Positions 6,329 through 24,089 of a DNA stretch of 64,000 nt are shown in pieces. A program made the position numbers and the translations under genes. Each line of letters starts with the position of its first letter. The first letter of the stretch is position 1. The DNA is from an uncultured Lachnoclostridium sp. Its GTDB lineage: Bacteria; Bacillota; Clostridia; Lachnospirales; Lachnospiraceae. Below the pieces are notes generated by a model. It was not told the DNA's origin, did not search any database, and saw only the letters and a list, made by a program, of their open reading frames with translations. Location of the stretch: assembly GCA_946402335.1 (NCBI GenBank), contig CAMIWE010000003.1, positions 2,400 through 66,399 on the forward strand, written 5' to 3'.

Positions 6329-6363
6329 TCCTTCTCCTTTCCGATGCAGATTTTTGTAATTTC

Positions 6364-6957
6364 TTACAGATTATTCCGGCGGAATAATGTAATTATCGTA
6401 CCGAGAATGTCTTTCTTCGTAACCGGTCCGAAATAACGGCTGTCCATACCGTTCATCCGGTCGTCGGAAAGAACAAAATACTGTCCTTCTTCGAGCTTGA
6501 TCGGATAAGTGACCTTGTCGCCGCGTTTCGGTGTAATCTTCAGATAATCCTCTGATTCGTTGATCACATTGCCGTTTACAACAAGCAAATTGGATTCGTT
6601 GATGTCAACAGTGTCACCGGGTGTGGCCACGACACGGCCCACAAGAAGCGTTTTCTTTCCGTTTTTCTCCGTATCCATCTCATACAGAATAACTTCACGG
6701 AATTTCGGCTTCTTATCCATCCGGAAGAAAATCAGAAGGTCGCCGGCATCAATCCGCGGCTCCATATCGGATGAAGGCATATGGGTAATTCCGATAATCT
6801 TAAAAAACAGAAGCCATATGACGAAAAGGAATATAACCAGATAAAGAAGAAACCAGCCGGCATTCTTCATCGTCTTTTCCGCTTTTCTGATGTCGGATTT
6901 TAATTTTTCGGACTCTTCTTTCTTCTCCTGAGTCTCTTTTACAGTATCCTCTGCCAT
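6364..6957 (-). CDS. SipA/LepA-like signal-peptidase-I homologue lacking the Ser/Lys dyad (pilus assembly chaperone candidate)
   Basis: 197 aa with an N-terminal TM. Its S26 boxes are PSSDMEPRIDAGDLL (canonical GDSMxPT) and LLVGRVVATPGDTV (canonical KRVIGLPGD). Asp64 (codon 6766-6768) sits at the catalytic Ser position and Gly107 at the Lys position. The C-terminal box is YFVLSDDRMNGMDSRYFGPV. RBS GGAAGGAG lies 7 nt upstream. Confidence 0.8.
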   Translation of the reverse strand: MAEDTVKETQEKKEESEKLKSDIRKAEKTMKNAGWFLLYLVIFLFVIWLLFFKIIGITHMPSSDMEPRIDAGDLLIFFRMDKKPKFREVILYEMDTEKNGKKTLLVGRVVATPGDTVDINESNLLVVNGNVINESEDYLKITPKRGDKVTYPIKLEEGQYFVLSDDRMNGMDSRYFGPVTKKDILGTIITLFRRNNL

Positions 6958-7068
6958 AAACGGCTCCTTCCTTATTGAACGGGAAAAGACCCGACAGCCC
7001 TATAGAAACTATACAGCCATCGGATCTTTTGACACCCTGACTGTTCGTAAGGGTATTCAATTTCGGTT

Positions 7069-8466
7069 TTAGTAAACTGCCTCTTCCTCTCTTCTGTTAC
7101 GCTTGAAAAGAAGTACGCAGAACATGATCAGCAATCCGCCCGCGAAGAGAATCATGAGGTAAGGCGCAAACCGGAGGATAACACCGGTAGGCGAAATGTT
7201 CTCAAACGTATTGGTAACAGCTACGGTGTGATCAACGGTATCGGCCTGATCTGCAGTCGTTGCGATCGTAACCATGGTGGACTCGTAAGCAGCTTTGGCA
7301 GACTGAACAACAGCCGACGAAGGTGCGCTTCCGCTTGTTACACCGCTGTCACTGGTCGTAGCATCCGAATCCACAACCGTCTGAACCTTGTAGGTAACAC
7401 CGGTCTGGTTGTTGGTCTCATATACCTGTGTGGTGGTGCCTGCAGGAATACCGATATATTTGATGGAGCCGCCGTCCATGATGAGGGCAACTACACCGAT
7501 CTCATTGCTGGTAAATGCAGCAAGTGCAGGATCATAGGATCCGTCAACCTTATCGCTGTTATTCGGCGTTGCGATAATATCAACCTGTCTGGTAATCGTG
7601 CTGTTCGTAAATACTACGGTGAACGGATACTTAGCTGTCAATGCGCCGTATGCGTCTCCCACAACCGTCTTCGATACCGTTACGTTGTAGGTATAGTATT
7701 TGTCGGCTGCGGTAATCAAATCACCGGAAGTCGGGTCTGTCTTGGAAACAAAACCGGTCGTCTTAACGGCAACGGTTCCCTTGTTCGCATCCGTAAAGGT
7801 TTCATTGTTAAAGAAGCAGGTATATCCGTAAATATCCCAGTCGGTTGCAGACTGACCGTTATTGGTCATTCCATCCGGATTCGGACGAACATATACATCG
7901 ATGTAACGGGTATCTGCAAGTTCGGTATCCGTAACGCCGGAAGTAGCGAATGTATATCCATCCGTAAGATTCTCGGTCAATACATAGCGGTATACGCCTG
8001 CACCGGTAAATACAACATTCGAAAAATCAATACCGAAAGCCTTGGTATTGGCTACACCATCCGTTCCTGCCGTAATCGTCTCGGAAGGCGACCAGCTTAC
8101 CGCGCCCGTTACGGTAGCTCCGGTGATGCCGGCCTTAACTGTAGCAATAACCGAGCCCGAAGGATTATGCTTGTCGGCTGCGTCAGTAACCGTGGTTCCG
8201 TCCGTTACGGTTGCCGGAGCAATCGTATAAGTATAACTGATGTCCGGAGCGTTCACGGTAATATTGTCCACAGCATTATATGCCCGCAGTTCCTTAGCAA
8301 GATACAGCGTCTTCGACTGTGAAACCGGTGTATCGGGGCTCGTAAAAGCGCCCTGCTCGCCGTTATTGTCAATCGAAGGCGTCGGCGGTGTTGAAGCAAA
8401 TGTCTGTGCGCACATTGCCATCACCATAACAACGGTTAAAATGACTGAAAAAATACGTTTACGCAT
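7069..8466 (-). CDS. Backbone pilin candidate with a non-LPXTG (ISPTG) cell-wall sorting signal
   Basis: 465 aa with signal peptide MRKRIFSVILTVVMVMAMCAQTFA. The body is T/V/G/A-rich and beta-strand-like. The C-terminus reads ENISPTG followed by a hydrophobic helix and KRNRREEE. It is the first gene of the operon, behind a 336-nt AT-rich promoter region. Confidence 0.8.
   Translation of the reverse strand: MRKRIFSVILTVVMVMAMCAQTFASTPPTPSIDNNGEQGAFTSPDTPVSQSKTLYLAKELRAYNAVDNITVNAPDISYTYTIAPATVTDGTTVTDAADKHNPSGSVIATVKAGITGATVTGAVSWSPSETITAGTDGVANTKAFGIDFSNVVFTGAGVYRYVLTENLTDGYTFATSGVTDTELADTRYIDVYVRPNPDGMTNNGQSATDWDIYGYTCFFNNETFTDANKGTVAVKTTGFVSKTDPTSGDLITAADKYYTYNVTVSKTVVGDAYGALTAKYPFTVVFTNSTITRQVDIIATPNNSDKVDGSYDPALAAFTSNEIGVVALIMDGGSIKYIGIPAGTTTQVYETNNQTGVTYKVQTVVDSDATTSDSGVTSGSAPSSAVVQSAKAAYESTMVTIATTADQADTVDHTVAVTNTFENISPTGVILRFAPYLMILFAGGLLIMFCVLLFKRNRREEEAVY
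7072..7197 (-). other. Sorting signal: ISPTG motif + TM helix + positively charged tail
   Basis: The ISPTG codons lie at 7183-7197. They are followed by VILRFAPYLMILFAGGLLIMFCVLLF and KRNRREEEAVY. Confidence 0.8.
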
Positions 8467-8802: not shown

Positions 8803-9660
8803 TTATTTCTTTTTGTTAATGACCAAAACGACACCGCCGCACAAAACAAGAAACGCTGCTGCAATCCCGAGAATAACCGAGATTTTTACAGGTTTGCCCT
8901 GCTTTTTAGAAGAGTCGACCGCATCAAGATCGGGTACATTACTCGTATCCGGCGAAAGTGTAGGAATCGGTGTAACCGTCGGTGTCGGAGAAAGAATCTC
9001 ATCGAGATTGACATCGATCTCTCCAATCTGGGTTTCCCCTGTAGCGGGAGTCGGTTCCAAAGTCACGGCATCGGTCGGTGCAGGGCTTTCGGTCGGTGTG
9101 GTTCCCGGGGTGATTTTTTCGGTAGGATCCGTCGTCGGAGTGGCCCCGGGAGTAACATTGCCGGTAGGTGCTGTCGTTGTTGTCGGTTCCGGGGTAACCG
9201 GTTCAACCGTAACAGTAGGCGCAGGCGTAACGGTACTCGGTTTCACCGGCTCCGTCGGAATCAGAATACCACCATTCAAGATCAGCTCGGTCGGCGTATC
9301 CTGCGGATGATCGGTATTCGCGTTGTAGATTACCTTCAGTCCGTCCTTGAATGCCCCCTCTTCCACCTTGCAGATCGTATCCGGCAGATTCAGCTTCTTG
9401 ATGTACTTATTGACGGAAAATGCGCCTTTGGCGATCGCATTTACCGGATATCCTCCGATCATCGAAGGAACCGTAACCTCTTCCTGCTTCCCAAAGCACC
9501 CGACAATCGTAATGGATTCATTCGCAATCGTATAATAGAGGGTGCCCTCAGTGTAGACGGTATCCGGATCCGGCTCGGAATCAACTGCAAATGCAGTTGA
9601 ATGCGGCAGAGCCAGGAGGAGGATAAAGGATATAATTAGTAAAGATATAAAACGTTTCAT
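8803..9660 (-). CDS. Secreted BspA-type leucine-rich-repeat protein with Pro/Thr linker and C-terminal TM anchor
   Basis: 285 aa with a signal peptide ending STAFA. The LRR_5-like unit reads ESITIVGCFG...VTVPSMIGGYPVNAIAKGAFSVNKYIKKLNLPDTICKVEEGAF. It has a ~100-aa P/T-rich linker, a TM helix ISVILGIAAAFLVLCGGVVLVI and a KKK tail. It starts 28 nt after the stop of the giant gene. Confidence 0.8.
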   Translation of the reverse strand: MKRFISLLIISFILLLALPHSTAFAVDSEPDPDTVYTEGTLYYTIANESITIVGCFGKQEEVTVPSMIGGYPVNAIAKGAFSVNKYIKKLNLPDTICKVEEGAFKDGLKVIYNANTDHPQDTPTELILNGGILIPTEPVKPSTVTPAPTVTVEPVTPEPTTTTAPTGNVTPGATPTTDPTEKITPGTTPTESPAPTDAVTLEPTPATGETQIGEIDVNLDEILSPTPTVTPIPTLSPDTSNVPDLDAVDSSKKQGKPVKISVILGIAAAFLVLCGGVVLVINKKK

Positions 9661-9688: not shown

Positions 9689-12600
9689 TTAATCTACCAT
9701 GAACTGCTTATATTGATTAATCAATTCCACTATTTCTTCAAATGTGATTTTTCCGGAATCTACAGCAATCTTAAGGTATTTACCATTCCACTCATCAAAC
9801 TGTTTCTCCGTCACATATTCTGCGAACACACTATAATCATATGTCCCGTATTTTGCAAGAGCCTCTTCGAATTTGGCTGTATCATAACGCATCGTTTCGC
9901 CCATCGGAATCCAGTTGTAGAATTCTTCCGGAGGTGCAACGGTCAATAATCCCGATGCAAATGCATTGGAAGTATATGCTGCAGTGATGGAATATGCATT
10001 CGTAACTTCTTCTGTCACATAAGCGTCAACAAGTTCAACCACATCATACTCATTATTGACGCTCTGCTTCACAAATCGATGACCGATAAAACTCTTGCAA
10101 TTCTCAGGAAAAATATATACAAACTTATTCTGATCAATATCAAACAATCCATGATCTGCTATCGTTCTGAGTGATGTGCCATCCGAGAAAGCAAGATTGG
10201 TTACCTTATATTCTGCTTCGCCGTGGTCAACAAGAATGGAAATATTCTGCGATACGTATTCACCGGTAAAGAAATCCCAACTAAGGATTTGGTCATCAGA
10301 TGAAATCTCTTCGATTGGCTTCTGTGAACCATCTGCAAGAGTAATCATAGTACCGGAAGCGAAGCAACCAGGACTAGGACAAGTATGTGCTGCTCTATAA
10401 TAAGCTACAACATAATAAAATGTATCACCTTTATTATCCGTATAGGAGAAAGATGCATACAATTCACTTTCGGACTTATCACTTCCTAAAGCACCGCTAG
10501 TCCAACCATAAAGATTTTTATATGTACCCGACGACAATTTTCCCTCAGTTCCTGCTTTACCGGACCCTGAAGACCATCCTGTCCCCTTAGAAGGCTTATC
10601 TTCTGTCAGTATATTGACCGAACTAGGACGAGAAGCCTGAGACGAATGATTCACTATCGTAGTAGCATTCTGTGCTGTTCCACCGTTAGCATAATCTTTA
10701 ATATCCACCGCCAGAAAGATCGGATAGAGCCAGTTGAAATCGCTGTAATTATCTTGAAAATCTACATAAACGACCGGACAATACACCGTTATTCCATCTA
10801 CAGTCGTACTTTTAACAGTATTACTTGTCGATGTCACATCAGGCATAACATATTTTTTTCCACCGGATGTGATAACAGTTTTGGATGAATATGTCTGCGA
10901 CGGGGTTTTACTCTCACTATTATATCCGTAAAACGTAAATTCAGCATTTTTTGCAGCTGCTTTTATTGCTGATACAGAAACCATAAAATCTTTTCTATAT
11001 GTTACGCTCGAATCCTTATTTCCCAAACTATTATAATTATATGGGTCAGTATATTCAAATTCCAATTCATATTCCCCAGCTTCAGTAAATGTAACAATTG
11101 AGTTGGCGCAAACTGATCCGCTTAATCTTACAGTATACGATAACGGAATACCGAATTTATTAACAGACAACGCCCCCAAATCTACAGAGTATCCATCAAG
11201 GTTTTCTTCTTCAAATCCAATTTTAACTTTTCTTTCATCGGAATCATAATAACAATAACGGCGTTCCGAAACATGTTCATTGGGCCAATTCCAACTTTCA
11301 GCAGGTATAACCACAGCCTGGCGATTACTAAAATCATCCGAATAATCTAATGAAACAGACTCTAGTGAATTGCCTTCGACCGTATAACATAAGCCGGTTT
11401 TTCCTAAAGCAGTTTTACTAACTCTTGTATAAGGCATGCCAACCTTTTGATCTGAATTTCTTTCATCTAGTAAATTGTTTGCGTTAAGGTTAACATTTTC
11501 ATTAAAATATAAAATACCGGTATTAACATAAGTTTTGTTTTGGTTTTTATACCTAATATTGCTATATGCACTATCGTTAAACAAGCTACCAAGGAAAGAG
11601 TTATAAGTACTAGGAACATCACTCTGCTGGGCCCAGTTATACTGATGAAGATAGCCGTCTAAGATTACCTTGGGAACATCTGATTCAACAATAATTCCCA
11701 TACCATAAGGGGAATCATCATACCCCGGTTGTACAGTTGTAAGGTTCTTTAATACAACTCGTTCTCCACCGCCAATAATCATATTTGCCACAGCGCCACC
11801 GATTATCGACGTATCTTCAATGGTGCTGTTGCCGGTTGTAACATTTACAGCATATTTGCTACCGGTAACCAAGCAATTATATAAACCGGAATTACCACTG
11901 AGACGTATAGTATCCTGATAATATTGATTACTTGTTCCAGACATAACCGCAGTGGGAAAATACTGCCCCAAGAACTGAACATTATTCGCATATCCGTTAG
12001 TAACATTGATCCAACCTTTAGCCCCGGAAGTATCTGTTCTGGTATCAATCACGCTAAAACCGTTACCATACAGCGTCTTACCATTCGAGATACTCATTCC
12101 GCTCGTGGAAACATCGTTTAAAAGAACAATATTTGCGCTTGATGCATTGGTAGCTGTTGTAGCATTATTAGCATTAACCACTTCCAGATTCAGCGTATAC
12201 TCGTCTCCGTTGCCTTCCTTGATGGTAACCTTAACAGGACCCTCGCCGGTGAATTTCAGCGTAGACTGGGTCCAATCAGATGCATTTGCCGAATATACGC
12301 ACTTTGCAGTGCTGCCTTCGGCAAGGTTTGTTCCGGTTCCTTTTACGGAGGAATTGCTCTCAACTGCCACTACTTTAATCGTGACATCCGAAGAAACAGG
12401 CGCACTATCTCCTGCTTCATCTACCTTGAACAACGATCCAAGTTTTACCGTATTTCCGTTACCGACACGATACAGATAACGGTCTACATTAGCGAAATTA
12501 TCACTATGTGTAAATGTATTTGCAGAAGCAATCTCAACCTTCTTTTTGTCCGCGTAGGTGTTATTATTGAAGGAAACCTCAGCAGTATATACCATGTATC

Positions 12601-15600
12601 CTGCATCGTCACCAGTACCGATGGTACCGGTAACCTCAGTTGATACACTGTCGGTATGCGATGCGTTATTTTGACATACGAAGGAAGCCGTTGCGGATGT
12701 ATATCCGTCGGCGTCATTTCCGGTCCAGCTCCAGGTCGGCTCACCCCAGTTGTGTCCAAGTGCAGCTATCTCAACATAGGTAGTGTAGTCACAACGTGAG
12801 CAGGTATCGTAAGCATTCCAGCCAATTTCCGTACAGGTTGCTGCCTGTGCCGCGTGACTAATAAGGTCGTGGCCAAGCGCCGCGATAACCTGGTTTTCTC
12901 TGGAAAGTTCTGCTCCACAGGTATTGCAGTATACCACTGCCTCATAAGAACCGGCTTCAAGGCAAGTTGCCTCTACACGGTTCTCTTCCACAGCTGCCTT
13001 AGGCGTATGCCCAAATGAAGCAATTTCCGCATATGTCGTATAGTCACAACGCAAGCAGGTTTCATAAGCGTTCCAACCTATTTCCGTACACGTTGCTGAC
13101 TGTGCCGCATGACTTATAAGATCATGACCAAGCGCTTCTACTTCACGGGTTTCCGTCTCTCCGCAGCGAGAGCAGGTTCTGGTCTCCTCGCCGGCTTCCG
13201 TGCAGGTCGGCTCTGCAGTTACAGACCAACTACCGAAGGAATGACCAAGTGCAGGATATACAACGATTGATGTATAGTCACATCTTTCGCAAGTGTTGTG
13301 CGGATTCCATCCGTCCTCCGTACAGGTGGCGGCCTTAGGAGCATGATATACCGTCTTATGACCTAACGAACTACCGACTATAATTGTCGTGCGACTTCGC
13401 TGAATACCGCAACGTGTGCAATAAACTACCGCTTCGTAAGTACTAGCCTGTGTACAGGTTGCTTCCTTTATGTTTTCAGCAACTGGCTCCCCATTAAGAT
13501 GTCCCTTCATAGAATCAATTATATGGTTAGATAAAAGCAATTTATTACATCTGTTGCAATAAGCAACCACATCATGAGAACCATTCTCCGTGCAGGTTGG
13601 TTCAACAATATTGATATTAATCAATTGCCCTTGAACATGTCCGAGACGATTTAATGAAATCTTGCCTCTGCTGATTTCCGAATTACATACGGAACAATAT
13701 CTAACTAAATCATAAGAGCCAAACTCTTCACAGGTTGGTTCTACCAGGTTTTCCTGTACAGGATCCATCATTACGTGTCCACTAGCAGGAATTACCATTT
13801 TCGTGGTGCTCAATTTATAGCCACAAACATCACAATATACAACATCATCATAATAACCGGCCTCCGTACAGGTTGCAGGAATTTCATTCTCTCTGACAGC
13901 CGGTAGCGGTGTATGACTCTTCGCCGGGACAACAATATAATCACGGCTTAATTCCGTACCGCATACTTCACAGTAAACAACCAAATCATAAGAGCCTTCT
14001 TCAGTACAGGATTCGCCCTTAACATTCTCCTTAACTGCTTCCGCTTCAAGATGTCCGGGAGCCTCGATCAGGACAAATGTGGTATAGTCGCAACGTTCGC
14101 AGGTATCGTATGCATCCCAGCCGTCCACAAGACAGGTTACCGGCTGAGCAGCATGATGAACAAGATCATGGCCAAGCGCGTCAATCTTCGCATAGGTAGT
14201 ATAATCACAACGTTCACAGGTCACATAAGCATCCCAGCCGATTTCGGTACAAGTTGCTGCCTGTGCCGCATGCTCAACGATCAGATGACCAAGAGCAGGA
14301 ATTACAACCTGCGTCGTATAATCGCAGCGGCTGCAGGCCTCATAAGCATCCCAGCCGTCCTCAGTACAAGTTACAGCCTTGGCATCATATTGCGTCAGAT
14401 CATGTCCGAGCGCACTAACCGGACGAGCCTCTACACCATTACAATACTGGCAGGTTCTGGTTTCTTCACCGTCAGCCGTACAGGTCGGATGCGTGGTTTC
14501 AAACCACATGCCCCAGTTATGGATGCACTGGAGGGTACTCGTCTCATCAATTACATATTCAATTCGGGAAACGGTTACCGCTTCGCTGCGGTCTGCGTCG
14601 GGCGCCCAGATAACAAGCTCAACCGTCATCTTCTTTCCGATGTTCAATGCGGAAAGATTGAATGCACCGCAGTCAAATGTTCCGATATTGAACAGGCAGT
14701 CATTATAGGTGACATTGTCAAGGCCGAACGAACGGAGAAGGTCAAATGTCTCGCCGTCTGCCACATCCTGCGGGAACAGGAATGCGAAGCTCAGGTCGGT
14801 ACCGTATCCGGAATAAGCGCCGTAAAGACCGAAGGATTCTTTTGCAAAATCTCCGTCAAATGTGATTCGGTAATCGCTGTTCCAGTCACGATAATACGCA
14901 AGCGTCTCATCGCTCGGTACATCGGCCGTAAACTCATATTCCACACCAAGGTGATCAACCATAATATGGGTGTCACCGAAAGGATCATTGATATCGATGA
15001 TCGGAACGCCGGTCTGCGGCTCCTTTTCCGTTACCAATGCGGAAGGATACTTCGGAATCGTATGGGTTACACGCTCCAGTTCCGCGCCACAGGTATCACA
15101 ATATACAACCATGTCGTAAGAACCGTCTTCCGAAATGGTGGGCTCTACATAATTTTCTTCAACCGCATCTTTAGGCGTATGACCAAGAGCAGCGATTTCA
15201 ACATACGTTGTATAGTCGCAGCGCGAGCAGGTATCATAGGCATCCCAGCCGATTTCCGTACAGGTCGCAGCCTGTGCCGGATGATTGATAAGGTCATGGC
15301 CGAGGGCGTCAATTACCTTAGGCTCTCTGCTAAGTTCTTCTCCACAGGTATCGCAGTATACGACAGCCTCATAGGAACCGGTCTCGGTACAGGTCGGCTC
15401 TACGCGGTTCTCTTCCACAGCTTCCTTAGGCATATGACCGAGTGCTTCAATCTTTACATAGGTTGAGTACTCACAACGCGAGCAGGTATCGTAAGCATCC
15501 CAGCCAATCTCCGTACAGGTCGCAGCCTGGGCGTCATGATGGATAAAATCATGGCCAAGTGCGTCAATCACCTTAGGCTCTCTGCTGAGTTCCTCTCCAC

Positions 15601-18600
15601 AGGTATCGCAATATACAACAGCATCGTAAGAACCGGTCTCAATACAGGTCGGCTCTACGCGGTTCTCTTCCACAGCTTCCTTAGGCGTATGGCCAAGGGC
15701 TGCAATCTCAGTATAAGTGGTATAATCACAACGTGAGCAGGTATCGTAAGCATCCCAGCCGATTTCCGTGCAGGTCGCAGCCTGAGAGTCGTGATGGATA
15801 TAATCATGACCGAGCGCATCAACCGGTCTGGTTTCGGAAGCGTTACAATATTCGCAGACTCTGGTTTCCTCGCCTTCCGTAATGCAGTCCGGTGCAGTCG
15901 TAACATACCAACCGCCCCAATTGTGTACGCAATCAACGTTGGACCGGTCATCAAAAGTATATTCAATTGCCACGATTGTCTTCGCGGAATCGCGATCGGA
16001 ATCAGGTGCCCACATGATCAGCTCAACGGTCATCTTCTTGCCGAGATTGAGTGCGGAAACATTAAATACGCCGCAGACAAATGTATTAATATCACTGCGG
16101 ATATCTCTGTAAGTAACATTTTCAAGACCGGCAGCCTGAAGAAGGTACACTTCGTCTCCTGCAACAACATTGTTCGGGAACAGGAATGCCAGGCTGTATG
16201 TAGTTCCGAAGCCGCTGTATTCGCCGAACAAACCGAAGGAATTCTCAAGGAAATCATCGGCAAATGTTACACGATAGTCGCAATTCCAGTCTTTATAATA
16301 ATCGTAAGTTGCATCTTCCGGAGTAACCGATGTAAAGGAATACTCTGCATTCAGCTTGTCAACGGTTTTATGCAGATCTTCATTAAGGTTTCGGATGTTA
16401 ACAAGTGGCAGATTCGTCCGTGGCTCCAGCTCGTCAACCTGTGCAGAAGGATACTTCGGAATCGTGTGGGTTACACGCTCAAGCACTTCACCGCAGGTGT
16501 CACAGTATACAACCATGTCATAAGAGCCGTCGGCCTCACAGGTCGCCTCAACATAGTTTTCTTCTACTGCTTCGTTCGGGGTATGGCCAAATGCTTCGAT
16601 CTTTACATATGTTGAATAATAACAACGCGAGCAGGTATCGTAAGCATTCCAGCCATTTTCCGTACAGGTCGCAGCCTGGGCGTCATGATGGATAAGGTCG
16701 TGTCCGAGAGCATCAATCACTGTAGCTGTTCTGCTGAGCTCTTCTCCGCAGGTATCACAGTAAACGACAGCATCATAGGAACCGGCCGCAATACAAGTCG
16801 GCTCTACACGATTCTCTTCTACAGCCGCCTTCGGGGTATGTCCGAACGCTTCAATCTTTACATATGTTGAATAATAACAACGCGAGCAGGTATCGTAAGC
16901 ATCCCAGCCAACCTCCGTACAGGTGGCAGCCTGAGCGTCATGATGGATAAGGTCGTGTCCGAGTGCATCGATAGTTTTAGGTTCTCTGCTGAGTTCCTCT
17001 CCGCAAGTTTCACAATATACAACAGCATCATAAGACCCGGCCGCAATACAAGTCGGCTCTACGCGATTTTCTTCTACAGCCGCCTTCGGGGTATGGCCAA
17101 ATGCTTCAATCTTTACATATGTTGAATAATAACAACGCGAGCAGGTATCGTAAGCATCCCAGCCAACCTCCGTACAGGTCGCTGCCTGAGCGTCATGATG
17201 GATAAGGTCGTGACCGAGTGCATCAATCACCTGGTGATTTCTGCTGAGTTCCTCTCCGCAAGTGTCACAATATACAACAGCATCATAAGACCCGGCTGCA
17301 ATACAAGTCGGCTCTACGCGATTTTCTTCTACAGCCGCCTTCGGGGTATGTCCGAATGCTTCAATCTTCACATATGTTGAATAATAACAACGCGAGCAGG
17401 TATCGTAAGCATCCCAGCCAACCTCCGTGCAGGTGGCAGCCTGCGCATCATGATGGATAAGGTCGTGACCGAGTGCATCAATCGCTCTGGTCTCGATTTC
17501 ATCACAGTTCGCACAGACTCTTGTCTCTTCGCCGTCTTCCAGGCAGGAAGCTTCCTTGGAAACGGTCCAATTGCTCCAGTTGTGGATGCAGTCAAGCTTC
17601 GTTGCCCCGGCAAACGTGTAGCTCTTTTGAGCAACAACATAAGCATCTTTAGGATCCGTACCGGGCTCCCACATAACCAGTTCCACGGTAACCGTAGTCC
17701 CGATATTGGCATCGGAAATGTTAAAAGCACCGCAGATGAACTCCGGAATATTCGTATAAATGTCATGATAAGTTACATTCGAAAGGCCGAGTGACTGAAG
17801 CAGAAAAAGGCTGTCCCCCTCTGCAAACCCAACAGGGCTGAGAAAGGCAGCCTCAAAGTCTGTTCCGAAACCGGAATAAGCTCCGTAAAAGCCGAAGCTT
17901 CCCGCAGCAATATCATGATCAAAGGAAACGCGGTAGTCACAGTTCCAGTCCGCGTAATATTCTTTCGTCTTGTCCTCAACGGAATCCGCAGTATAGGAAT
18001 ATACACCGTCAATCGAGCGAACGGTTTTCGTAACCGGATTCAATGTGGAAGGATCGTACAGCTGCACATTTTCCAAAGGTGCAACCTCTGTAACGATTGC
18101 CGTAGGCATGTCAGGCGCCGGAATCGGCACGGGCTCAAAGACAGGATTATAGACCGCATCGGCCGTTACCGGTGCAAGTTCCGGATCCCATCCGATAAAG
18201 TTATAGGTATACTCGTCATCTTCTGCTTTTACGGGCTCTTCGCCTTCATAAACAGGCATCTGACCCATCAAAACATCGGAAGTCTGCAGTGCATTGCCTT
18301 CCGCATCATTGAAGGTAACCGTATAATATACTCCGTTCAGACTGTTATAGGAGAACGAATTGATATCCGAATAAATCGTATGAAGGGCACCGTCTTTATC
18401 ACGGTAGGATACATATGCCCGGATATACAAAACGATATTCGGATCTGTAGTCGAAAGGTTATAGGTATATACACCCTTCTGGGTCGTAAGGCCGGATTTG
18501 AGTTGGCGAACATCCACGCCGCCCAATACAAGATTCTGCGCCGCGTCTTCCCCTCCGAACAAGGTTCCGTTTACGCCAAATACAAAGCCGGAGACGCTGA

Positions 18601-19807
18601 CAACGCAATCGGCAGGAACATAATACTGCATTGTGTTCGAAAGGATATATTTAACGGTATCATTTTGAACCTGTTTTGAGGAATAAGACTGCGTGATAAC
18701 GACAAGTGCCTGATCTTCAATCGGCTCAAGACCGTAAACCGCCTGAAGCGTAACCGTACCGGTAAGCGCGCAGCGAACAGATACGCTTGTGGCGTAACTG
18801 GTAATCTGACCGTCCTGCATCCAGTAATGGAATACATAGCCGTCTATCGCCGGTGCTGTGAATGATTTTACTTCACCAATGGAAAGAATCTTGGAAACAG
18901 ACGGAGCAAGTTCATTCTCTCCGTCCGTATAAAGCACATTAACCGTACATTCTTCTCCGCTCGCTACGTAAGCAGGAACAATGACAATGGCATTCTTCTC
19001 GGCCATCGCGGCATGAATGGATTCATCCGTAGCTTCAATATCGGAAGGATTTCCGTTGTCATCCGCAAGATACCATCCCTTAAAGATACTGCCCATCTTA
19101 ATCGGAATATCGACAGGGAAATCGATAGTCTCAGATGTGGAATAGGTTCTTGATGAGAACAACTGGCTGTAAGCATTTCGGAAATATACTACGCCCTGAT
19201 TGGGGCGGTCTTCCTTCGGAGTATAATAAGCAATCAGTTTGGTTTCACCGGAAAAGATAAAAGAATAATCCTTATTAGACGAAACAATGTTGCCGGAACC
19301 ATTAACCCAATAACGGAAATCCATAGTATCATCCACGAATGATACAAACATTTTCTCGCCGGAATTGAAATTCTGTTTGAAAGAAATGAATTGTACGGCA
19401 CCATTGTTTACTTTAAATTCGGAGCCGGAGACTTCGAACTTGAAAGCAGAGCCGCTCTTCTTTTCATAGAGAGCTACCAGATCCCGATCGGAATTTACGG
19501 TAAAAGCATAGTCCTGACTAATGCTCAAGCGGTTCGAATAAGAAGTATCTGCGGCATCATACCAGCCAAGGAAGCTATATCCCGTGCGGGAATATGCTAT
19601 CACGGTTGCAGATGAACCGTCAGCATATAAACCGCCTCCGGAAACACGCGAAACGGTCGTAGTACCTCCTTTTACTCTGGTTGTGGCGGTAATCACATAC
19701 CCTTCTTCCTCTTCACCTGCCGCCTTAGAAACAGACGGGAACAGAATAAATGCGAGGAAAAGAATGCAGATACCGTATAGAATCCTTGCTTTCAAATGAT
19801 TTTTCAT
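9689..19807 (-). CDS. Giant (3372 aa) secreted modular surface protein
   Basis: Single ORF from the track. Signal peptide is MKNHLKARILYGICILFLAFILFPSVSKA. It has GW(Y/D)-type B-repeat motifs (GYSFLGWY, FKGWYLADDNG, YNFIGWDPEL), 3 DW-C-DY modules, about 30 GH...C...CxxC mini-modules, a beta-helix and a C-terminal Hint domain (sub-features below). There is no LPXTG-like motif, C-terminal TM, SLH or choline-binding motif. Confidence 0.9.
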   Translation of the reverse strand: MKNHLKARILYGICILFLAFILFPSVSKAAGEEEEGYVITATTRVKGGTTTVSRVSGGGLYADGSSATVIAYSRTGYSFLGWYDAADTSYSNRLSISQDYAFTVNSDRDLVALYEKKSGSAFKFEVSGSEFKVNNGAVQFISFKQNFNSGEKMFVSFVDDTMDFRYWVNGSGNIVSSNKDYSFIFSGETKLIAYYTPKEDRPNQGVVYFRNAYSQLFSSRTYSTSETIDFPVDIPIKMGSIFKGWYLADDNGNPSDIEATDESIHAAMAEKNAIVIVPAYVASGEECTVNVLYTDGENELAPSVSKILSIGEVKSFTAPAIDGYVFHYWMQDGQITSYATSVSVRCALTGTVTLQAVYGLEPIEDQALVVITQSYSSKQVQNDTVKYILSNTMQYYVPADCVVSVSGFVFGVNGTLFGGEDAAQNLVLGGVDVRQLKSGLTTQKGVYTYNLSTTDPNIVLYIRAYVSYRDKDGALHTIYSDINSFSYNSLNGVYYTVTFNDAEGNALQTSDVLMGQMPVYEGEEPVKAEDDEYTYNFIGWDPELAPVTADAVYNPVFEPVPIPAPDMPTAIVTEVAPLENVQLYDPSTLNPVTKTVRSIDGVYSYTADSVEDKTKEYYADWNCDYRVSFDHDIAAGSFGFYGAYSGFGTDFEAAFLSPVGFAEGDSLFLLQSLGLSNVTYHDIYTNIPEFICGAFNISDANIGTTVTVELVMWEPGTDPKDAYVVAQKSYTFAGATKLDCIHNWSNWTVSKEASCLEDGEETRVCANCDEIETRAIDALGHDLIHHDAQAATCTEVGWDAYDTCSRCYYSTYVKIEAFGHTPKAAVEENRVEPTCIAAGSYDAVVYCDTCGEELSRNHQVIDALGHDLIHHDAQAATCTEVGWDAYDTCSRCYYSTYVKIEAFGHTPKAAVEENRVEPTCIAAGSYDAVVYCETCGEELSREPKTIDALGHDLIHHDAQAATCTEVGWDAYDTCSRCYYSTYVKIEAFGHTPKAAVEENRVEPTCIAAGSYDAVVYCDTCGEELSRTATVIDALGHDLIHHDAQAATCTENGWNAYDTCSRCYYSTYVKIEAFGHTPNEAVEENYVEATCEADGSYDMVVYCDTCGEVLERVTHTIPKYPSAQVDELEPRTNLPLVNIRNLNEDLHKTVDKLNAEYSFTSVTPEDATYDYYKDWNCDYRVTFADDFLENSFGLFGEYSGFGTTYSLAFLFPNNVVAGDEVYLLQAAGLENVTYRDIRSDINTFVCGVFNVSALNLGKKMTVELIMWAPDSDRDSAKTIVAIEYTFDDRSNVDCVHNWGGWYVTTAPDCITEGEETRVCEYCNASETRPVDALGHDYIHHDSQAATCTEIGWDAYDTCSRCDYTTYTEIAALGHTPKEAVEENRVEPTCIETGSYDAVVYCDTCGEELSREPKVIDALGHDFIHHDAQAATCTEIGWDAYDTCSRCEYSTYVKIEALGHMPKEAVEENRVEPTCTETGSYEAVVYCDTCGEELSREPKVIDALGHDLINHPAQAATCTEIGWDAYDTCSRCDYTTYVEIAALGHTPKDAVEENYVEPTISEDGSYDMVVYCDTCGAELERVTHTIPKYPSALVTEKEPQTGVPIIDINDPFGDTHIMVDHLGVEYEFTADVPSDETLAYYRDWNSDYRITFDGDFAKESFGLYGAYSGYGTDLSFAFLFPQDVADGETFDLLRSFGLDNVTYNDCLFNIGTFDCGAFNLSALNIGKKMTVELVIWAPDADRSEAVTVSRIEYVIDETSTLQCIHNWGMWFETTHPTCTADGEETRTCQYCNGVEARPVSALGHDLTQYDAKAVTCTEDGWDAYEACSRCDYTTQVVIPALGHLIVEHAAQAATCTEIGWDAYVTCERCDYTTYAKIDALGHDLVHHAAQPVTCLVDGWDAYDTCERCDYTTFVLIEAPGHLEAEAVKENVKGESCTEEGSYDLVVYCEVCGTELSRDYIVVPAKSHTPLPAVRENEIPATCTEAGYYDDVVYCDVCGYKLSTTKMVIPASGHVMMDPVQENLVEPTCEEFGSYDLVRYCSVCNSEISRGKISLNRLGHVQGQLININIVEPTCTENGSHDVVAYCNRCNKLLLSNHIIDSMKGHLNGEPVAENIKEATCTQASTYEAVVYCTRCGIQRSRTTIIVGSSLGHKTVYHAPKAATCTEDGWNPHNTCERCDYTSIVVYPALGHSFGSWSVTAEPTCTEAGEETRTCSRCGETETREVEALGHDLISHAAQSATCTEIGWNAYETCLRCDYTTYAEIASFGHTPKAAVEENRVEATCLEAGSYEAVVYCNTCGAELSRENQVIAALGHDLISHAAQAATCTEIGWNAYDTCSRCDYTTYVEIAALGHNWGEPTWSWTGNDADGYTSATASFVCQNNASHTDSVSTEVTGTIGTGDDAGYMVYTAEVSFNNNTYADKKKVEIASANTFTHSDNFANVDRYLYRVGNGNTVKLGSLFKVDEAGDSAPVSSDVTIKVVAVESNSSVKGTGTNLAEGSTAKCVYSANASDWTQSTLKFTGEGPVKVTIKEGNGDEYTLNLEVVNANNATTATNASSANIVLLNDVSTSGMSISNGKTLYGNGFSVIDTRTDTSGAKGWINVTNGYANNVQFLGQYFPTAVMSGTSNQYYQDTIRLSGNSGLYNCLVTGSKYAVNVTTGNSTIEDTSIIGGAVANMIIGGGERVVLKNLTTVQPGYDDSPYGMGIIVESDVPKVILDGYLHQYNWAQQSDVPSTYNSFLGSLFNDSAYSNIRYKNQNKTYVNTGILYFNENVNLNANNLLDERNSDQKVGMPYTRVSKTALGKTGLCYTVEGNSLESVSLDYSDDFSNRQAVVIPAESWNWPNEHVSERRYCYYDSDERKVKIGFEEENLDGYSVDLGALSVNKFGIPLSYTVRLSGSVCANSIVTFTEAGEYELEFEYTDPYNYNSLGNKDSSVTYRKDFMVSVSAIKAAAKNAEFTFYGYNSESKTPSQTYSSKTVITSGGKKYVMPDVTSTSNTVKSTTVDGITVYCPVVYVDFQDNYSDFNWLYPIFLAVDIKDYANGGTAQNATTIVNHSSQASRPSSVNILTEDKPSKGTGWSSGSGKAGTEGKLSSGTYKNLYGWTSGALGSDKSESELYASFSYTDNKGDTFYYVVAYYRAAHTCPSPGCFASGTMITLADGSQKPIEEISSDDQILSWDFFTGEYVSQNISILVDHGEAEYKVTNLAFSDGTSLRTIADHGLFDIDQNKFVYIFPENCKSFIGHRFVKQSVNNEYDVVELVDAYVTEEVTNAYSITAAYTSNAFASGLLTVAPPEEFYNWIPMGETMRYDTAKFEEALAKYGTYDYSVFAEYVTEKQFDEWNGKYLKIAVDSGKITFEEIVELINQYKQFMVD
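9692..9937 (-). other. 82-aa C-terminal tail following the Hint domain (function unknown)
   Basis: Sequence: APPEEFYNWIPMGETMRYDTAKFEEALAKYGTYDYSVFAEYVTEKQFDEWNGKYLKIAVDSGKITFEEIVELINQYKQFMVD. It is acidic and aromatic and looks helical. I recognise no toxin or enzyme motif. Confidence 0.5.
9938..10366 (-). other. Hint (Hedgehog/intein-like, bacterial intein-like) autoprocessing domain
   Basis: The junction is ...HTCPSPG|CFASGTMITLADGSQKPIEEISSDDQILS..., with the Cys codon at 10364-10366. A block-B-like DGTSLRTIADHGLF is present. The domain ends NAFASGLLTVAPP, with no terminal His-Asn and no +1 nucleophile. Confidence 0.75.
11630..12100 (-). other. Right-handed parallel beta-helix-like region
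   Basis: Short repeats rich in G/N/T/V with a periodicity of about 22 aa. They include NGKTLYGNGFSVIDTR, NVTNGYANNVQFLG, IRLSGNSGLYNCLVTGSKYAVNVTTGNSTIEDTSIIGGAVANMIIGGGERVVLKNL. Confidence 0.5.
12770..14530 (-). repeat. Array 3 of His/Cys3 mini-modules (about 14 copies, divergent)
   Basis: The recurring pattern is (A/S)(L/F)GH-x(11-15)-C(T)E-x-G-x(5-8)-C-x2-C, roughly every 40-45 aa. Examples are ALGHDLVHHAAQPVTCLVDGWDAYDTCERCDY and ASGHVMMDPVQENLVEPTCEEFGSYDLVRYCSVCNSE. Confidence 0.8.
14535..15070 (-). other. DW-C-DY module copy A3 (variant with Ser in place of the first Cys)
   Basis: Sequence: IPKYPSALVTEKEP...YYRDWNSDYRITFDGDFAKESFGLYGAYSGYG...FDCGAFNLSALNIGKKMTVELVIWAPD. Confidence 0.7.
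15070..15935 (-). repeat. Array 2 of His/Cys3 mini-modules (7 copies; about 2.5 DNA copies of a 255-bp unit at roughly 85-90% identity)
   Basis: The antisense shadow ORFs at 15536 and 15791 are exactly 255 nt apart. The protein repeats read IDALGHD(F/L/Y)IHHD(A/S)QAATCTEIGWDAYDTCSRC(D/E)Y and ALGH(T/M)PKEAVEENRVEPTC.ETGSY.AVVYCDTCGEELSREPKV. Confidence 0.8.
15935..16465 (-). other. DW-C-DY module copy A2
   Basis: Sequence: IPKYPSAQVDELEP...YYKDWNCDYRVTFADDFLENSFGLFGEYSGFG...FVCGVFNVSALNLGKKMTVELIMWAPD. Confidence 0.7.
16606..17480 (-). repeat. Near-identical in-frame tandem repeat, 255-bp unit, about 3.4 copies (85 aa = two His/Cys3 mini-modules per unit)
   Basis: Units begin with CATATGTTGAATAATAACAACGCGAGCAGG at 16606, 16861, 17116 and 17371, an exact 255-nt period. 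Aligned by eye they differ at only a few positions. The protein repeat is IDALGHDLIHHDAQAATCTEVGWDAYDTCSRCYYSTYVKIEAFGHTPKAAVEENRVEPTCIAAGSYDAVVYC(D/E)TCGEELSR. Confidence 0.9.
17600..18120 (-). other. DW-C-DY module copy A1
   Basis: Sequence: PAPDMPTAIVTEVAP...YYADWNCDYRVSFDHDIAAGSFGFYGAYSGFG...FICGAFNISDANIGTTVTVELVMWEPG. Confidence 0.7.
18335..18705 (-). other. About 120-aa domain shared with the C-terminus of the 1356-aa protein
   Basis: VVITQSYSSKQ...YILSNTMQYYVPADCVVSVSGFVFG...LYIRAYVSYRDKDGALHTIYSD aligns by eye with SITQMYASQVDGNYILSTTMRYFVPEGCQLLESGFVYS...LYIRAYIIYTDSEGSVVTRYSD. Confidence 0.6.
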
Positions 19808-24045: not shown

Positions 24046-24089
24046 AAACAACACTTCTCCTCTTACATATTTATCAAAAAGCATTTCTG

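Follow-up and report, generated by a model that had tools for sequence, protein, structure and literature searches.

We describe here a giant secreted protein of 3372 residues from an uncultured Lachnoclostridium sp., encoded on the reverse strand at positions 9689–19807 (stop codon 9689–9691) of the window, the 64-kb stretch of DNA that was analysed; all of the features given below lie on the same strand. A signal peptide (aa 1–29, 19721–19807), whose cleavage site MKNHLKARILYGICILFLAFILFPSVSKA|AGEE is placed from the sequence, is the sole hydrophobic segment in the protein, and is followed by a passenger (aa 30–3147, 10367–19720) that has Flg_new repeats at its N-terminus and also contains three 'YYKDWNCDY' modules of ~200 aa each and numerous Cys-rich repeats of 85 aa. 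The last 225 residues, which map to 10366–9692 at 100% (tblastn), comprise a 143-residue Hint domain (aa 3148–3290, 9938–10366; CFASGTMITLADG ... NAFASGLLTV), supported by Foldseek, the family profile and full-length alignment with the BIL2 domain, and a conserved helical C-terminal tail of 82 residues (aa 3291–3372, 9692–9937; APPEEFYNW...YKQFMVD). The junction between passenger and Hint domain reads ...YYRAAHTCPSPG|CFASGTMITLADGSQKPIEEISSDDQIL, with the predicted scissile bond at Gly3147-Cys3148, and residues 3132–3145 directly before it have low model confidence. Cys3148 (10364–10366) is the Hint domain's Cys1 and the predicted thioester nucleophile, and His3219 (10151–10153, in RTIADHG) is the block-B His72; both residues are invariant in the homologues examined. 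The sequences DGTSLRTIADHGLF and NAFASGLLTVAPP are both found in the protein, and there is no second copy of the Hint-tail module within the 64-kb window.

The protein has no LPXTG-type signal, and thus lacks the combination of LPXTG-like motif, transmembrane (TM) helix and basic tail that marks a sortase substrate; Pfam finds no match to SLH, LysM, CWB or Gram_pos_anchor over the 3372 residues. The initial annotation had stated that no other recognisable anchor is present, and the Pfam scan and the check for hydrophobic segments and LPXTG motifs confirm this. Directly downstream lies a gene (8803–9660) whose 285-aa product has a signal peptide and a linker rich in Pro and Thr, and ends in a TM anchor at the C-terminus; it is followed by genes for a 465-aa DUF7601 protein, for a type I signal peptidase and for a sortase of class B (together 4946–8466). 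The DUF7601 protein (7069–8466) bears the sorting signal ISPTG, a TM segment and KRNRR, the sortase bears a FILTED C-terminal domain, and the signal peptidase is of the bacterial type and not SipW. Clustering of all neighbouring ORFs from 83 sources, as a hunt for partner or immunity genes, gave no such gene common to all loci. There are partial associations with a large cluster that has TasA-like proteins among its members (27 loci), with a ~250-aa protein with a TasA-type signal that is mostly directly downstream (14 loci), and with an S26 peptidase (10 loci), and a homologue of the 285-aa TM protein is directly downstream in four loci, the window included. We asked whether the sortase, signal peptidase and pilin genes next to the gene in the window form a recurrent context; they do not, and the DUF7601 gene is likewise not conserved beside the module at other loci.

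The HMM searches proposed with the initial annotation were run on the single sequence. Matches to Hint models are present and all sub-threshold, with Pfam Hint at 20.6–21.2 bits against a curated cut-off of 29.7, Hom_end_hint at 22.4 against 32.1, Intein_splicing at 21.3 against 35.8, and TIGR01445 at 20.4 against 24.5 (Pfam/NCBIfam), and just seven of 46 family members match Pfam Hint at E≤1e-4. [quoted passage not shown] The identification as a Hint domain stands despite the sub-threshold scores because the family profile matches BIL2 at E 1e-6 and Hedgehog at E 5e-5 to 4e-4, and because an AlphaFold (AF2) model of Hint domain plus tail (pLDDT 88, pTM 0.83) gives a Foldseek E of 6e-9, with TM scores of 0.75–0.85 to BIL2, mini-inteins, Hedgehog HhC and a C. 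thermocellum BIL. Against the PDB there are 63 Foldseek matches at E≤1e-3, and all 50 of those listed are Hint-fold chains (inteins, BIL domains and Hedgehog HhC), with TMt mostly 0.6–0.85 among the matches listed. The last 225 residues thus open with a genuine Hint-superfamily domain, identified far beyond chance, with Cys1 encoded at 10364–10366 as first noted. Of the interpretation first put forward for this protein, the Hint domain, the missing His-Asn and the lack of an anchor are upheld, and an effector role for the tail and membership of a named family are not.

The Hint domain ends ...GLLTV|APP without His-Asn, and lacks the pattern of a class 1 intein (His-Asn with Cys/Ser/Thr at +1). 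HMMER aligns ...NAFASGLLTV with ...NFFANGVLAH of T. thermophila BIL2, which places Val-Ala in the His-Asn position. The absence of the dipeptide, first noted in the window protein, extends to the family, in that positions 143 and 144, where His-Asn would sit, are M/V/L/I and then P/T/A in 87/87, and a C-terminal Asn is absent from all 87 aligned members. We considered Asn151 as a displaced C-terminal cleavage residue and rejected it because it is not invariant (conserved in 60/87, D or M in 22) and lies seven to eight residues past the end of the Hint fold.

The catalytic residues needed for the first step of Hint chemistry are retained throughout. Cys1 is invariant in 87/87 modules from GTDB and the window and in 155/155 metagenome proteins, and the block-B His72 in 87/87, which argues that N-S acyl-shift chemistry is under selection; autoprocessing at the Gly-Cys junction is, on these sequence grounds, a well-founded prediction. 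The residue preceding Cys1 is small, being S or G in 56 of 86. The Thr of the block-B TxxH motif (position 69) is replaced by I or V in 82/87 with the His kept. In block F, which varies across the family, the window protein has Thr in place of the His. Position 46 is D or E in 44/87 and position 48 is H, D or E in 79/87, with at least one of the two so occupied in 84/87 (V46-D47-H48 in the window protein); in an alignment with Hedgehog HhC that is gapless from C1 to H72, position 46 falls on the Hedgehog general-base Asp46, an equivalence that we take as tentative. The missing block-B Thr and altered block F count against the Hedgehog-like reading that we favour below, and together with the sub-threshold Pfam scores they would suit a module that does not cleave and that serves either for non-covalent binding or anchoring, with the tail as a possible binding domain, or as a tag for secretion or quality control. 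We consider such a silent module very improbable, because retention of Cys1 and His72 without exception in more than 240 sequences at ~43% mean identity is hard to explain without catalysis, and because the small residue at -1 suits Hint junctions.

The Hint domain and 82-aa tail are one conserved module, present in ~2,200 clusters of proteins and in 263 species of GTDB, all uncultured Clostridia. A tail-only profile matches 2,206 representative proteins (1,832 at E≤1e-10), and in the 168 sequences inspected the tail follows a Hint domain in every one and never occurs without it; it is terminal in all but five, which carry low-complexity extensions. The length from Cys1 to the stop is 220–237 aa in 82/86 homologues. 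Hint domain and tail evolve at the same rate (mean pairwise identities of 43.4% and 43.5%, r = 0.71), and the linker between them has a pLDDT of 83–89 when the Hint domain is present, compared with 57–70 in a tail-only model. The tail has no match in PDB, BFVD, Pfam or NCBIfam, and Foldseek with the tail-only model finds nothing significant (best E 3.5 and 5.7 in PDB and BFVD); against these databases the tail is a new domain. It is acidic (pI 4.4), soluble (GRAVY -0.54) and built of four helices, and we found no likeness to the Hedgehog SRR or to known wall-, lipid- or glycan-binding domains. A weak match to PMBR (pseudomurein-binding repeat) was dismissed as chance because it is seen in one of 14 family members.

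The passengers that carry the module are unrelated to one another and of surface type, including S8 subtilases, BspA LRR proteins, Flg_new proteins, M64 peptidases and TasA-like proteins. A signal peptide is present in 60/68 complete host proteins by a crude motif heuristic, and no recognised wall anchor was found in the 46+10 host proteins scanned. Several genomes or loci hold more than one copy of the module on different passengers, as a sorting module would. A conserved host with two ligated exteins, as expected of an intein, is not seen, in that members share no related N-terminal part, whereas the last 82 aa have co-evolved with the Hint domain. The plasmid and phage collections contain no real match, the lone one being an intein N-terminus in a Vibrio phage, and no description of the module was found in the literature searched.

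This distribution bears directly on a polymorphic-toxin model, in which a PT-HINT domain frees the 82-aa tail to act as a toxin or small effector. In polymorphic toxins exported by Sec, those of Firmicutes among them, HINT peptidases do lie directly ahead of the C-terminal toxin domain (PMC3482391), and the window protein is similarly large, repetitive and secreted. Without the Asn, however, cleavage is possible just where the Hint domain begins, and the tail would stay fused to that domain. The tail is also a single family (2,206 matches) with the same degree of conservation as the Hint domain and no sign of cassette swapping, the 83 sources have no conserved immunity-like gene downstream, Pfam PT-HINT has no match at E≤1, and plasmids and phages have no match either. 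We regard this model as largely refuted and barely credible. The earlier suggestion that the tail is a small effector likewise does not fit, since the tail is not polymorphic but conserved and is not followed by any conserved gene of immunity type. The other role first suggested for the tail, that of a Hedgehog ARR-like region, fits a tail that is always present, of fixed length, co-evolving and never without Hint, and by this analogy the tail is probably an accessory or acceptor-recognition domain. The acceptor-recognition role is argued from analogy because the tail is acidic, soluble and without likeness to SRR or known binding domains.

Comparison with Hedgehog and other Hog proteins shows the same architecture. 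In each, a secreted passenger at the N-terminus is joined through Gly|Cys to a Hint domain of ~145 aa, and a helical region of ~70–80 aa ends the protein, and the module therefore has the Hog arrangement of a Hint domain followed by a C-terminal region at the end of a secreted protein. The profile matches to Hedgehog (E 5e-5 to 4e-4), a TM score of 0.75 and the D/E/H residues at or near the putative Asp46 position point the same way. The profile alignment with Hedgehog does not extend past the first ~93 residues of the Hint domain. Both also lack a C-terminal Asn, which would leave just N-terminal cleavage or transfer possible. Diverse passengers with a constant C-terminal module are likewise seen in nematode and protist Hog proteins (PMC2362128). 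The differences are that Hog proteins are eukaryotic and the module is found in bacteria (Clostridia), that the Hedgehog SRR is amphipathic and hydrophobic whereas the tail is acidic and soluble with no detectable SRR homology, and that the module has neither the Thr of TxxH nor an equivalent of Cys143.

BIL2, from the BUBL1 locus of T. thermophila (PDB 6y75/6tmm), is the best match by both sequence (E 1e-6) and structure (Foldseek E 6e-9, TM 0.82) and aligns over the full length of the Hint domain. It differs in ending with His-Asn (the crystal form is N143A according to the PDB title), and in being internal between ubiquitin-like domains in a eukaryotic, intracellular protein, whereas the module is terminal and extracellular and lacks the Asn. 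BIL2 resolves its thioester with an amine to give an isopeptide (PMC8616854), and the module might conceivably do so within the same molecule. In such a model K199 or K204 of the tail motif ...YLKxAxGKG... would attack the thioester to give an isopeptide-branched product with no release. The formation by BIL2, the closest structure, of a Lys-epsilon isopeptide with the following domain (PMC8616854), and the conservation of the two positions (K199 is K or R in 85/87, and K204 is kept in 86/87), are consistent with it, although the lysines may be structural and the product has no apparent functional rationale; we consider intramolecular branching highly improbable.

The module also resembles the BIL domains, Hint domains found in variable, non-conserved secreted bacterial proteins, but these are described as internal and without a dedicated conserved C-terminal partner domain such as the module has. 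The structure of the C. thermocellum BIL (2lwy) has a TM score of 0.85 to the Hint domain, although it has no sequence match at E≤10. A-type BIL domains are defined by a conserved C-terminal His-Asn (PMC7765530), which the module lacks. The B-type, which is described as having the intein motifs minus the C-terminal one and as undergoing N-terminal cleavage (PMC7765530), is compatible in its motif pattern, although Pfam Hint_2 has no match at E≤1 and the module is set beside the B-type by description. [quoted passage not shown] The best reading is that the module is a bacterial "Hog-like" autoprocessing module.

We propose that the last 225 residues are a self-contained C-terminal autoprocessing module akin to the Hedgehog Hog region, in which the tail steers transfer to an acceptor, and we give this somewhat better than an even chance. 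After export by Sec, Cys3148, aided by His3219, would carry out an N-to-S acyl shift at Gly3147-Cys3148, such that the passenger hangs from the Hint domain via a thioester. Splicing and C-terminal cleavage cannot follow because the module lacks both the C-terminal Asn and a nucleophile downstream of it, and the thioester could be resolved by an outside nucleophile alone; the ~3,118-aa passenger would then leave a Hint-tail stub in a single turnover. We infer this cleavage, together with a role for the tail, which most likely binds or positions the nucleophile as does the Hedgehog SRR/ARR. The C-terminus of the passenger would pass covalently to an acceptor and not undergo plain hydrolysis; the acceptor may be a component of the cell wall, a lipid component, a protein partner or the surface of a target. 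There are precedents for different types of acceptor in the transfer by Hedgehog to a hydroxyl (PMC5874633, PMC7765530) and by BIL2 to a Lys epsilon-amine (PMC8616854). The module thus probably detaches the protein C-terminus, or covalently re-attaches it, without a sortase. Anchoring cannot be its universal purpose, however, because TasA-like and type IV pilin-like passengers already attach N-terminally.

The main competitor is plain hydrolysis, in which the Hint domain and tail are cut off the passenger to release or mature a secreted protein. The evidence from Cys1 and His72 serves this model equally well, N-terminal cleavage is reported for BIL domains (PMC5874633, PMC7765530), and the tail carries no acceptor-binding signature. 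Among the passengers are many enzymes (S8 subtilases, M64) and proteins of matrix or fibre type, which could work when released, and the tail would be a mere aid to folding, retention or timing, for example by holding the protein at the surface until cleavage. Hydrolysis needs no added domain, yet an 82-aa domain is strictly kept and co-evolving across ~2,200 clusters, and the putative Hedgehog general-base position keeps either an acidic residue or His. Passengers of classic wall-anchored types are, moreover, found here without any anchor. We consider hydrolysis unlikely as the whole account, if well short of negligible, and continue to favour tail-directed transfer.

The module also resembles sortase/LPXTG, T9SS CTD and PEP-CTERM systems, in which a C-terminal module is present on many unrelated surface proteins per genome. 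Types of protein that are usual sortase substrates (subtilases, LRR adhesins) here bear the Hint-tail module instead of LPXTG, and as with sortase the C-terminal module is predicted to be removed via a thioester acyl intermediate. Unlike sortase, the thioester would be made by the substrate itself, in a single turnover and without a separate enzyme, and anchoring is hypothetical. We offer tentatively, as a possible rather than a probable outcome, an 'auto-sortase' model in which thousands of surface proteins of Clostridia form their own C-terminal thioesters, and the tail directs them onto a specific acceptor. Candidates would be an amine or hydroxyl of peptidoglycan or wall polymer, a lipid of the membrane, the subunit of a fibre, or a surface of host or dietary origin. 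If this is correct, bacteria would have an equivalent of Hedgehog cholesteroylation, and the gut microbiota a new means of covalent surface display or adhesion.

If the Hog-like reading holds, giant unannotated surface proteins of uncultured gut and rumen Clostridia gain a shared mechanism of processing or attachment, and the Hog-type architecture, so far treated as eukaryotic, has a widespread bacterial counterpart, which bears on the origin of Hog domains, a question raised by Burglin in 2008. The 82-aa tail would then be a new nucleophile-selecting domain for a protein thioester, and could be useful in protein-ligation tools without an added enzyme. Pfam and NCBIfam miss the family because the Hint part is sub-threshold and the tail is absent from both, and a dedicated model would improve the annotation of many MAGs; the source names seen for module proteins are all 'hypothetical protein'. 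We also note that the initial annotation rested on a single protein, and the module is common to ~2,200 protein clusters.

The protein in question is the product of a 3372-aa open reading frame on the minus strand (9689..19807), which has a Sec signal peptide of typical form at its N-terminus (MKNHLKARILYGICILFLAFILFPSVSKA|AGEE) and ends with a Hint domain (residues 3148-3290, 143 aa) and a tail (residues 3291-3372, 82 aa), the border between the two following from a HMMER alignment to BIL2, a Hint domain of Tetrahymena thermophila. The junction between the N-terminal passenger and the Hint domain reads ...YYRAAHTCPSPG|CFASGTMITLADGSQKPIEEISSDDQIL, both DGTSLRTIADHGLF and NAFASGLLTVAPP are found in the protein, and tblastn returns the 225-aa query onto 10366-9692 with 100% identity, placing the Cys1 codon at 10364-10366 on the minus strand. 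Translation and tblastn show that the initial annotation described the junction, the Cys1 codon and the block-B-like motif accurately. Its claim that a terminal His-Asn is lacking also holds, because ...NAFASGLLTV aligns opposite ...NFFANGVLAH of BIL2, such that Val-Ala occupy the His-Asn positions. The signal peptide is the sole hydrophobic 19-mer window of the protein, no LPXTG-type sorting signal was found in it, and Pfam reports no SLH, LysM, CWB or Gram_pos_anchor domain, in agreement with the earlier view that it has no other anchor.

HMM searches with the single sequence match only Hint models, but every score lies under its curated cut-off (Pfam Hint, 20.6-21.2 bits against 29.7; Hom_end_hint, 22.4 against 32.1; Intein_splicing, 21.3 against 35.8; TIGR01445, 20.4 against 24.5). 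The assignment of residues 3148-3290 as a Hint domain is settled, at the level of sequence and predicted structure, by stronger tests. With phmmer against PDB sequences, BIL2 (153 aa, 6y75/6tmm) aligns over the whole domain at E 8e-5, and a profile of 19 homologues recovers BIL2 at E 1e-6 and Hedgehog at 5e-5 (6td6) and 2e-4 (1at0). When the C-terminal 253 residues are modelled with AlphaFold2 (mean pLDDT 88, pTM 0.83), the model has the Hint fold: Foldseek gives 63 matches to the PDB at E<=1e-3, and each of the 50 listed is a chain of this fold. Among those listed, BIL2 (E 6e-9, TM 0.82), the Ssp DnaB and Mtu RecA mini-inteins, Hedgehog HhC (TM 0.75) and the C. thermocellum BIL (TM 0.85) match best.

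The module belongs to a large family. Word-indexed searching gave just 23 relatives, most of them fragments and each named 'hypothetical protein' at source; when one genome per GTDB species was scanned, 263 relatives came up. The best 80 of the 263, which were fetched, belong without exception to uncultured Bacillota, and almost all of these are Clostridia of gut or rumen (Oscillospiraceae, Acutalibacteraceae, Christensenellales, Faecousia and others), and these loci plus two metagenome contigs yielded 86 homologous modules. Each match begins at a Cys (Cys1 in 86/86) preceded by a small residue (S in 40, G in 16; n=86), and the distance from Cys1 to the stop codon is 220-237 aa in 82 of the 86; the Hint domain and tail therefore always end the protein. 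With the window's own module included (87 sequences), T9, A11, G13, H72, F98 and G174, counted from Cys1, are invariant, and the would-be His-Asn positions hold M/V/L/I and then P/T/A in every sequence. A tail-only profile has 2,206 matches at E<=1e-3 (1,832 at E<=1e-10) among 1.84 billion representative proteins, and the tail, whose variation the initial annotation had proposed to survey, forms one conserved family and is not polymorphic. The Hint domain precedes the tail in 168/168 tail-bearing sequences inspected, with Cys1 present in 155/155 whose domain N-terminus aligns, and the tail is the protein end in all but five of the 168, which have low-complexity extensions; the 80 loci and 150 proteins examined are the best-scoring, and hence biased towards complete modules. 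Mean pairwise identities are 43.4% for the Hint domain and 43.5% for the tail, with values correlated across pairs (r = 0.71), and by these sequence comparisons the two evolve as one unit. The module was not found in plasmid or phage collections. Three of the extended metagenome proteins (P0102, P0119, P0156) continue for 41-49 aa past the tail in a His/Asn/Gly-rich segment (...HGNHNGQGNGNHHGHNNGNGNHNGH...RRRGR) that could bind metal, and two (P0044, P0122) have Pro/Glu/Ala-rich extensions.

In Hint domains the peptide bond preceding Cys1 becomes a thioester. A terminal Asn is then required for C-terminal cleavage or splicing, and for splicing a +1 nucleophile as well; a domain that lacks these can only cleave on its N-terminal side or transfer its passenger to a nucleophile from outside. 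Neither Cys1 nor the block-B His varies among more than 240 sequences averaging about 43% identity, and the Asn is absent throughout. The invariance is strong evidence that the thioester chemistry is kept, and it makes catalytic silence of the module improbable. From the invariant Cys1 and His and the missing Asn we infer self-cleavage at Gly3147|Cys3148, by which the passenger would be freed of a 225-aa stub made up of Hint domain and tail. Inteins and A-type BILs were rejected as identities since the module lacks His-Asn, and it is not PT-HINT. A B-type BIL is a possible identity, with a compatible motif pattern but no Hint_2 match. The suggestion in the initial annotation that the tail is a small effector, and a toxin reading generally, is disfavored: the tail is conserved, no immunity-like gene follows it, and canonical cleavage of tail from Hint is impossible without Asn.

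Modelled on its own with AF2 (pLDDT 83), the tail is a domain of four helices with no PDB match (Foldseek, best E 3.5) or BFVD match (best E 5.7). The tail has no consistent Pfam family (PMBR matches one of 14 members) and no NCBIfam match, and is acidic and hydrophilic (pI 4.4, GRAVY -0.54), with conserved residues that are aromatic or Gly/Lys (Y161, D162, Y173-G174, Y178, F181, F190, K199, K204-G205). The two-domain model (pTM 0.83) suggests a fixed arrangement of Hint and tail, and together with the linker pLDDT (83-89 with the Hint domain present versus 57-70 in the tail-only model) it suggests that the tail packs against the Hint domain. A sequence alignment runs without a gap to the Hedgehog general base, Asp46, whose putative counterpart in the family lies at or near position 46; this position is D/E in 44/87 sequences, position 48 is H/D/E in 79/87, and 84/87 have at least one of the two. 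Hedgehog transfers to cholesterol, positioned by the post-Hint SRR (PMC5874633, PMC7765530, PMC2362128), and BIL2 hands its thioester to a Lys amine, giving an isopeptide (PMC8616854). By analogy, the tail may be an accessory, acceptor-selecting domain, and the passenger would hence be covalently transferred, a reading favored because the tail is strictly retained, because it co-evolves with the Hint domain, because an acidic or His residue lies at or near the putative Asp46 position, and because the passengers are surface-type proteins otherwise lacking an anchor. The tail resembles no known binding domain, however, and simple hydrolysis, releasing or maturing the passenger, is a serious rival to transfer.

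By architecture the module would work like a Hog domain, and BIL2 is nearest to its Hint part in both sequence and structure. Burglin (2008) described proteobacterial secreted proteins ending in a divergent Hint-like domain (PMC2362128), and this is the nearest literature precedent, although the taxonomic range differs and no dedicated tail was described. Our full-text literature search found no description of the Clostridia module, and the tail is not modelled in Pfam-A (2025 copy) or NCBIfam 20.0; we regard the Hint part as a large subfamily that is new, joined to an accessory domain that is new as well.

Host proteins span about 250 to >3,500 aa. With gene starts and signal peptides called by simple heuristics, 60 of 68 complete host proteins have an N-terminal signal (a crude motif heuristic), which in about 17 of those 60 is of the TasA/SipW type ('...GTTFAWFTDS...') and in one resembles a type IV pilin N-terminus; the TasA/camelysin-type, SipW-cognate-like signal (...GTTFAWFTDSV...) starts about a quarter of complete family members (loci L009, L011, L013, L015, L017, L019, L023, L030, L035, L040, L045, L051, L055, L059, L069 and L077). 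At several of these loci an S26 peptidase gene is present too, along with genes for other proteins that bear this signal. Pfam scans of 10 and 46 members reveal unrelated passengers and no recognised wall anchor: Flg_new repeats (14/46), BspA-type LRR (8/46), S8 subtilases (8/46, plus 2/10), and M64 peptidase, beta-helix, DUF285 with Big_3 and one dockerin. In five loci (L014, L022, L025, L041 and L058, the second being on the opposite strand in L058), a pair of module genes that differ in their passengers is found within some 10 kb, and the MAGs JAZRDI, JAZOCA and CAJUOP recur among the best 80; such a distribution is what one would expect of a general module for C-terminal processing or sorting. 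A 1774-aa module protein in L080 (3330-8702) opens with a class III signal resembling that of type IV pilins (MKRKKGFTIVELAIVIAVVAIL...), thus joining a pilin-anchored N-terminus with a C-terminal Hint-tail. Short module proteins (372-441 aa) in L002 (8449-9774) and L001 (9335-10453) have GLUG-like Gly-rich N-termini without an obvious signal peptide, and the L002 gene sits amid mobile-element genes (a REP_ORF2-G2P replication protein and a PcfK-like protein).

Neighbor clustering gave no universal partner gene. A large cluster including TasA-like proteins occurs at 27 loci, a ~250-aa protein with a TasA-type signal at 14, mostly directly downstream, and an S26 peptidase at 10; by sequence, the TasA-type signals and S26 peptidases link the module to putative TasA-like fibre or matrix operons. 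Four same-strand genes follow the 3372-aa protein gene in the window. They include a 285-aa membrane protein, with homologues as neighbors at four loci, and the adjacent sortase cluster (4946-8466, minus) encodes a 465-aa DUF7601 protein (ISPTG, TM and KRNRR sorting signal), a bacterial type I signal peptidase and a class B sortase (TIGR03064, 158 bits); this context is not recurrent. The DUF7601 sorting signal is non-canonical (...NISPTG, a TM helix, then KRNRR), and the sortase has an extra C-terminal membrane region matching the FILTED domain. Upstream, a 1356-aa protein (20014-24084, minus) shares with the 3372-aa protein ~200-aa '...YYKDWxCDY...FGLYGAY...' modules and a Flg_new_2 repeat; it has neither Hint-tail nor recognisable anchor, and looks like a passenger paralogue that lacks the module. 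Within the window's passenger, 255-nt tandem repeats at 15078-15822 and 16557-17483 (2.9 and 3.6 copies; 81% and 90% nucleotide matches) encode 85-aa Cys-rich units (DALGHD...CTExGWDAYDTCSRC...CxxCGEELSR), with 'DALGH' recurring every 85 aa in two runs, and these arrays look like a recent expansion.
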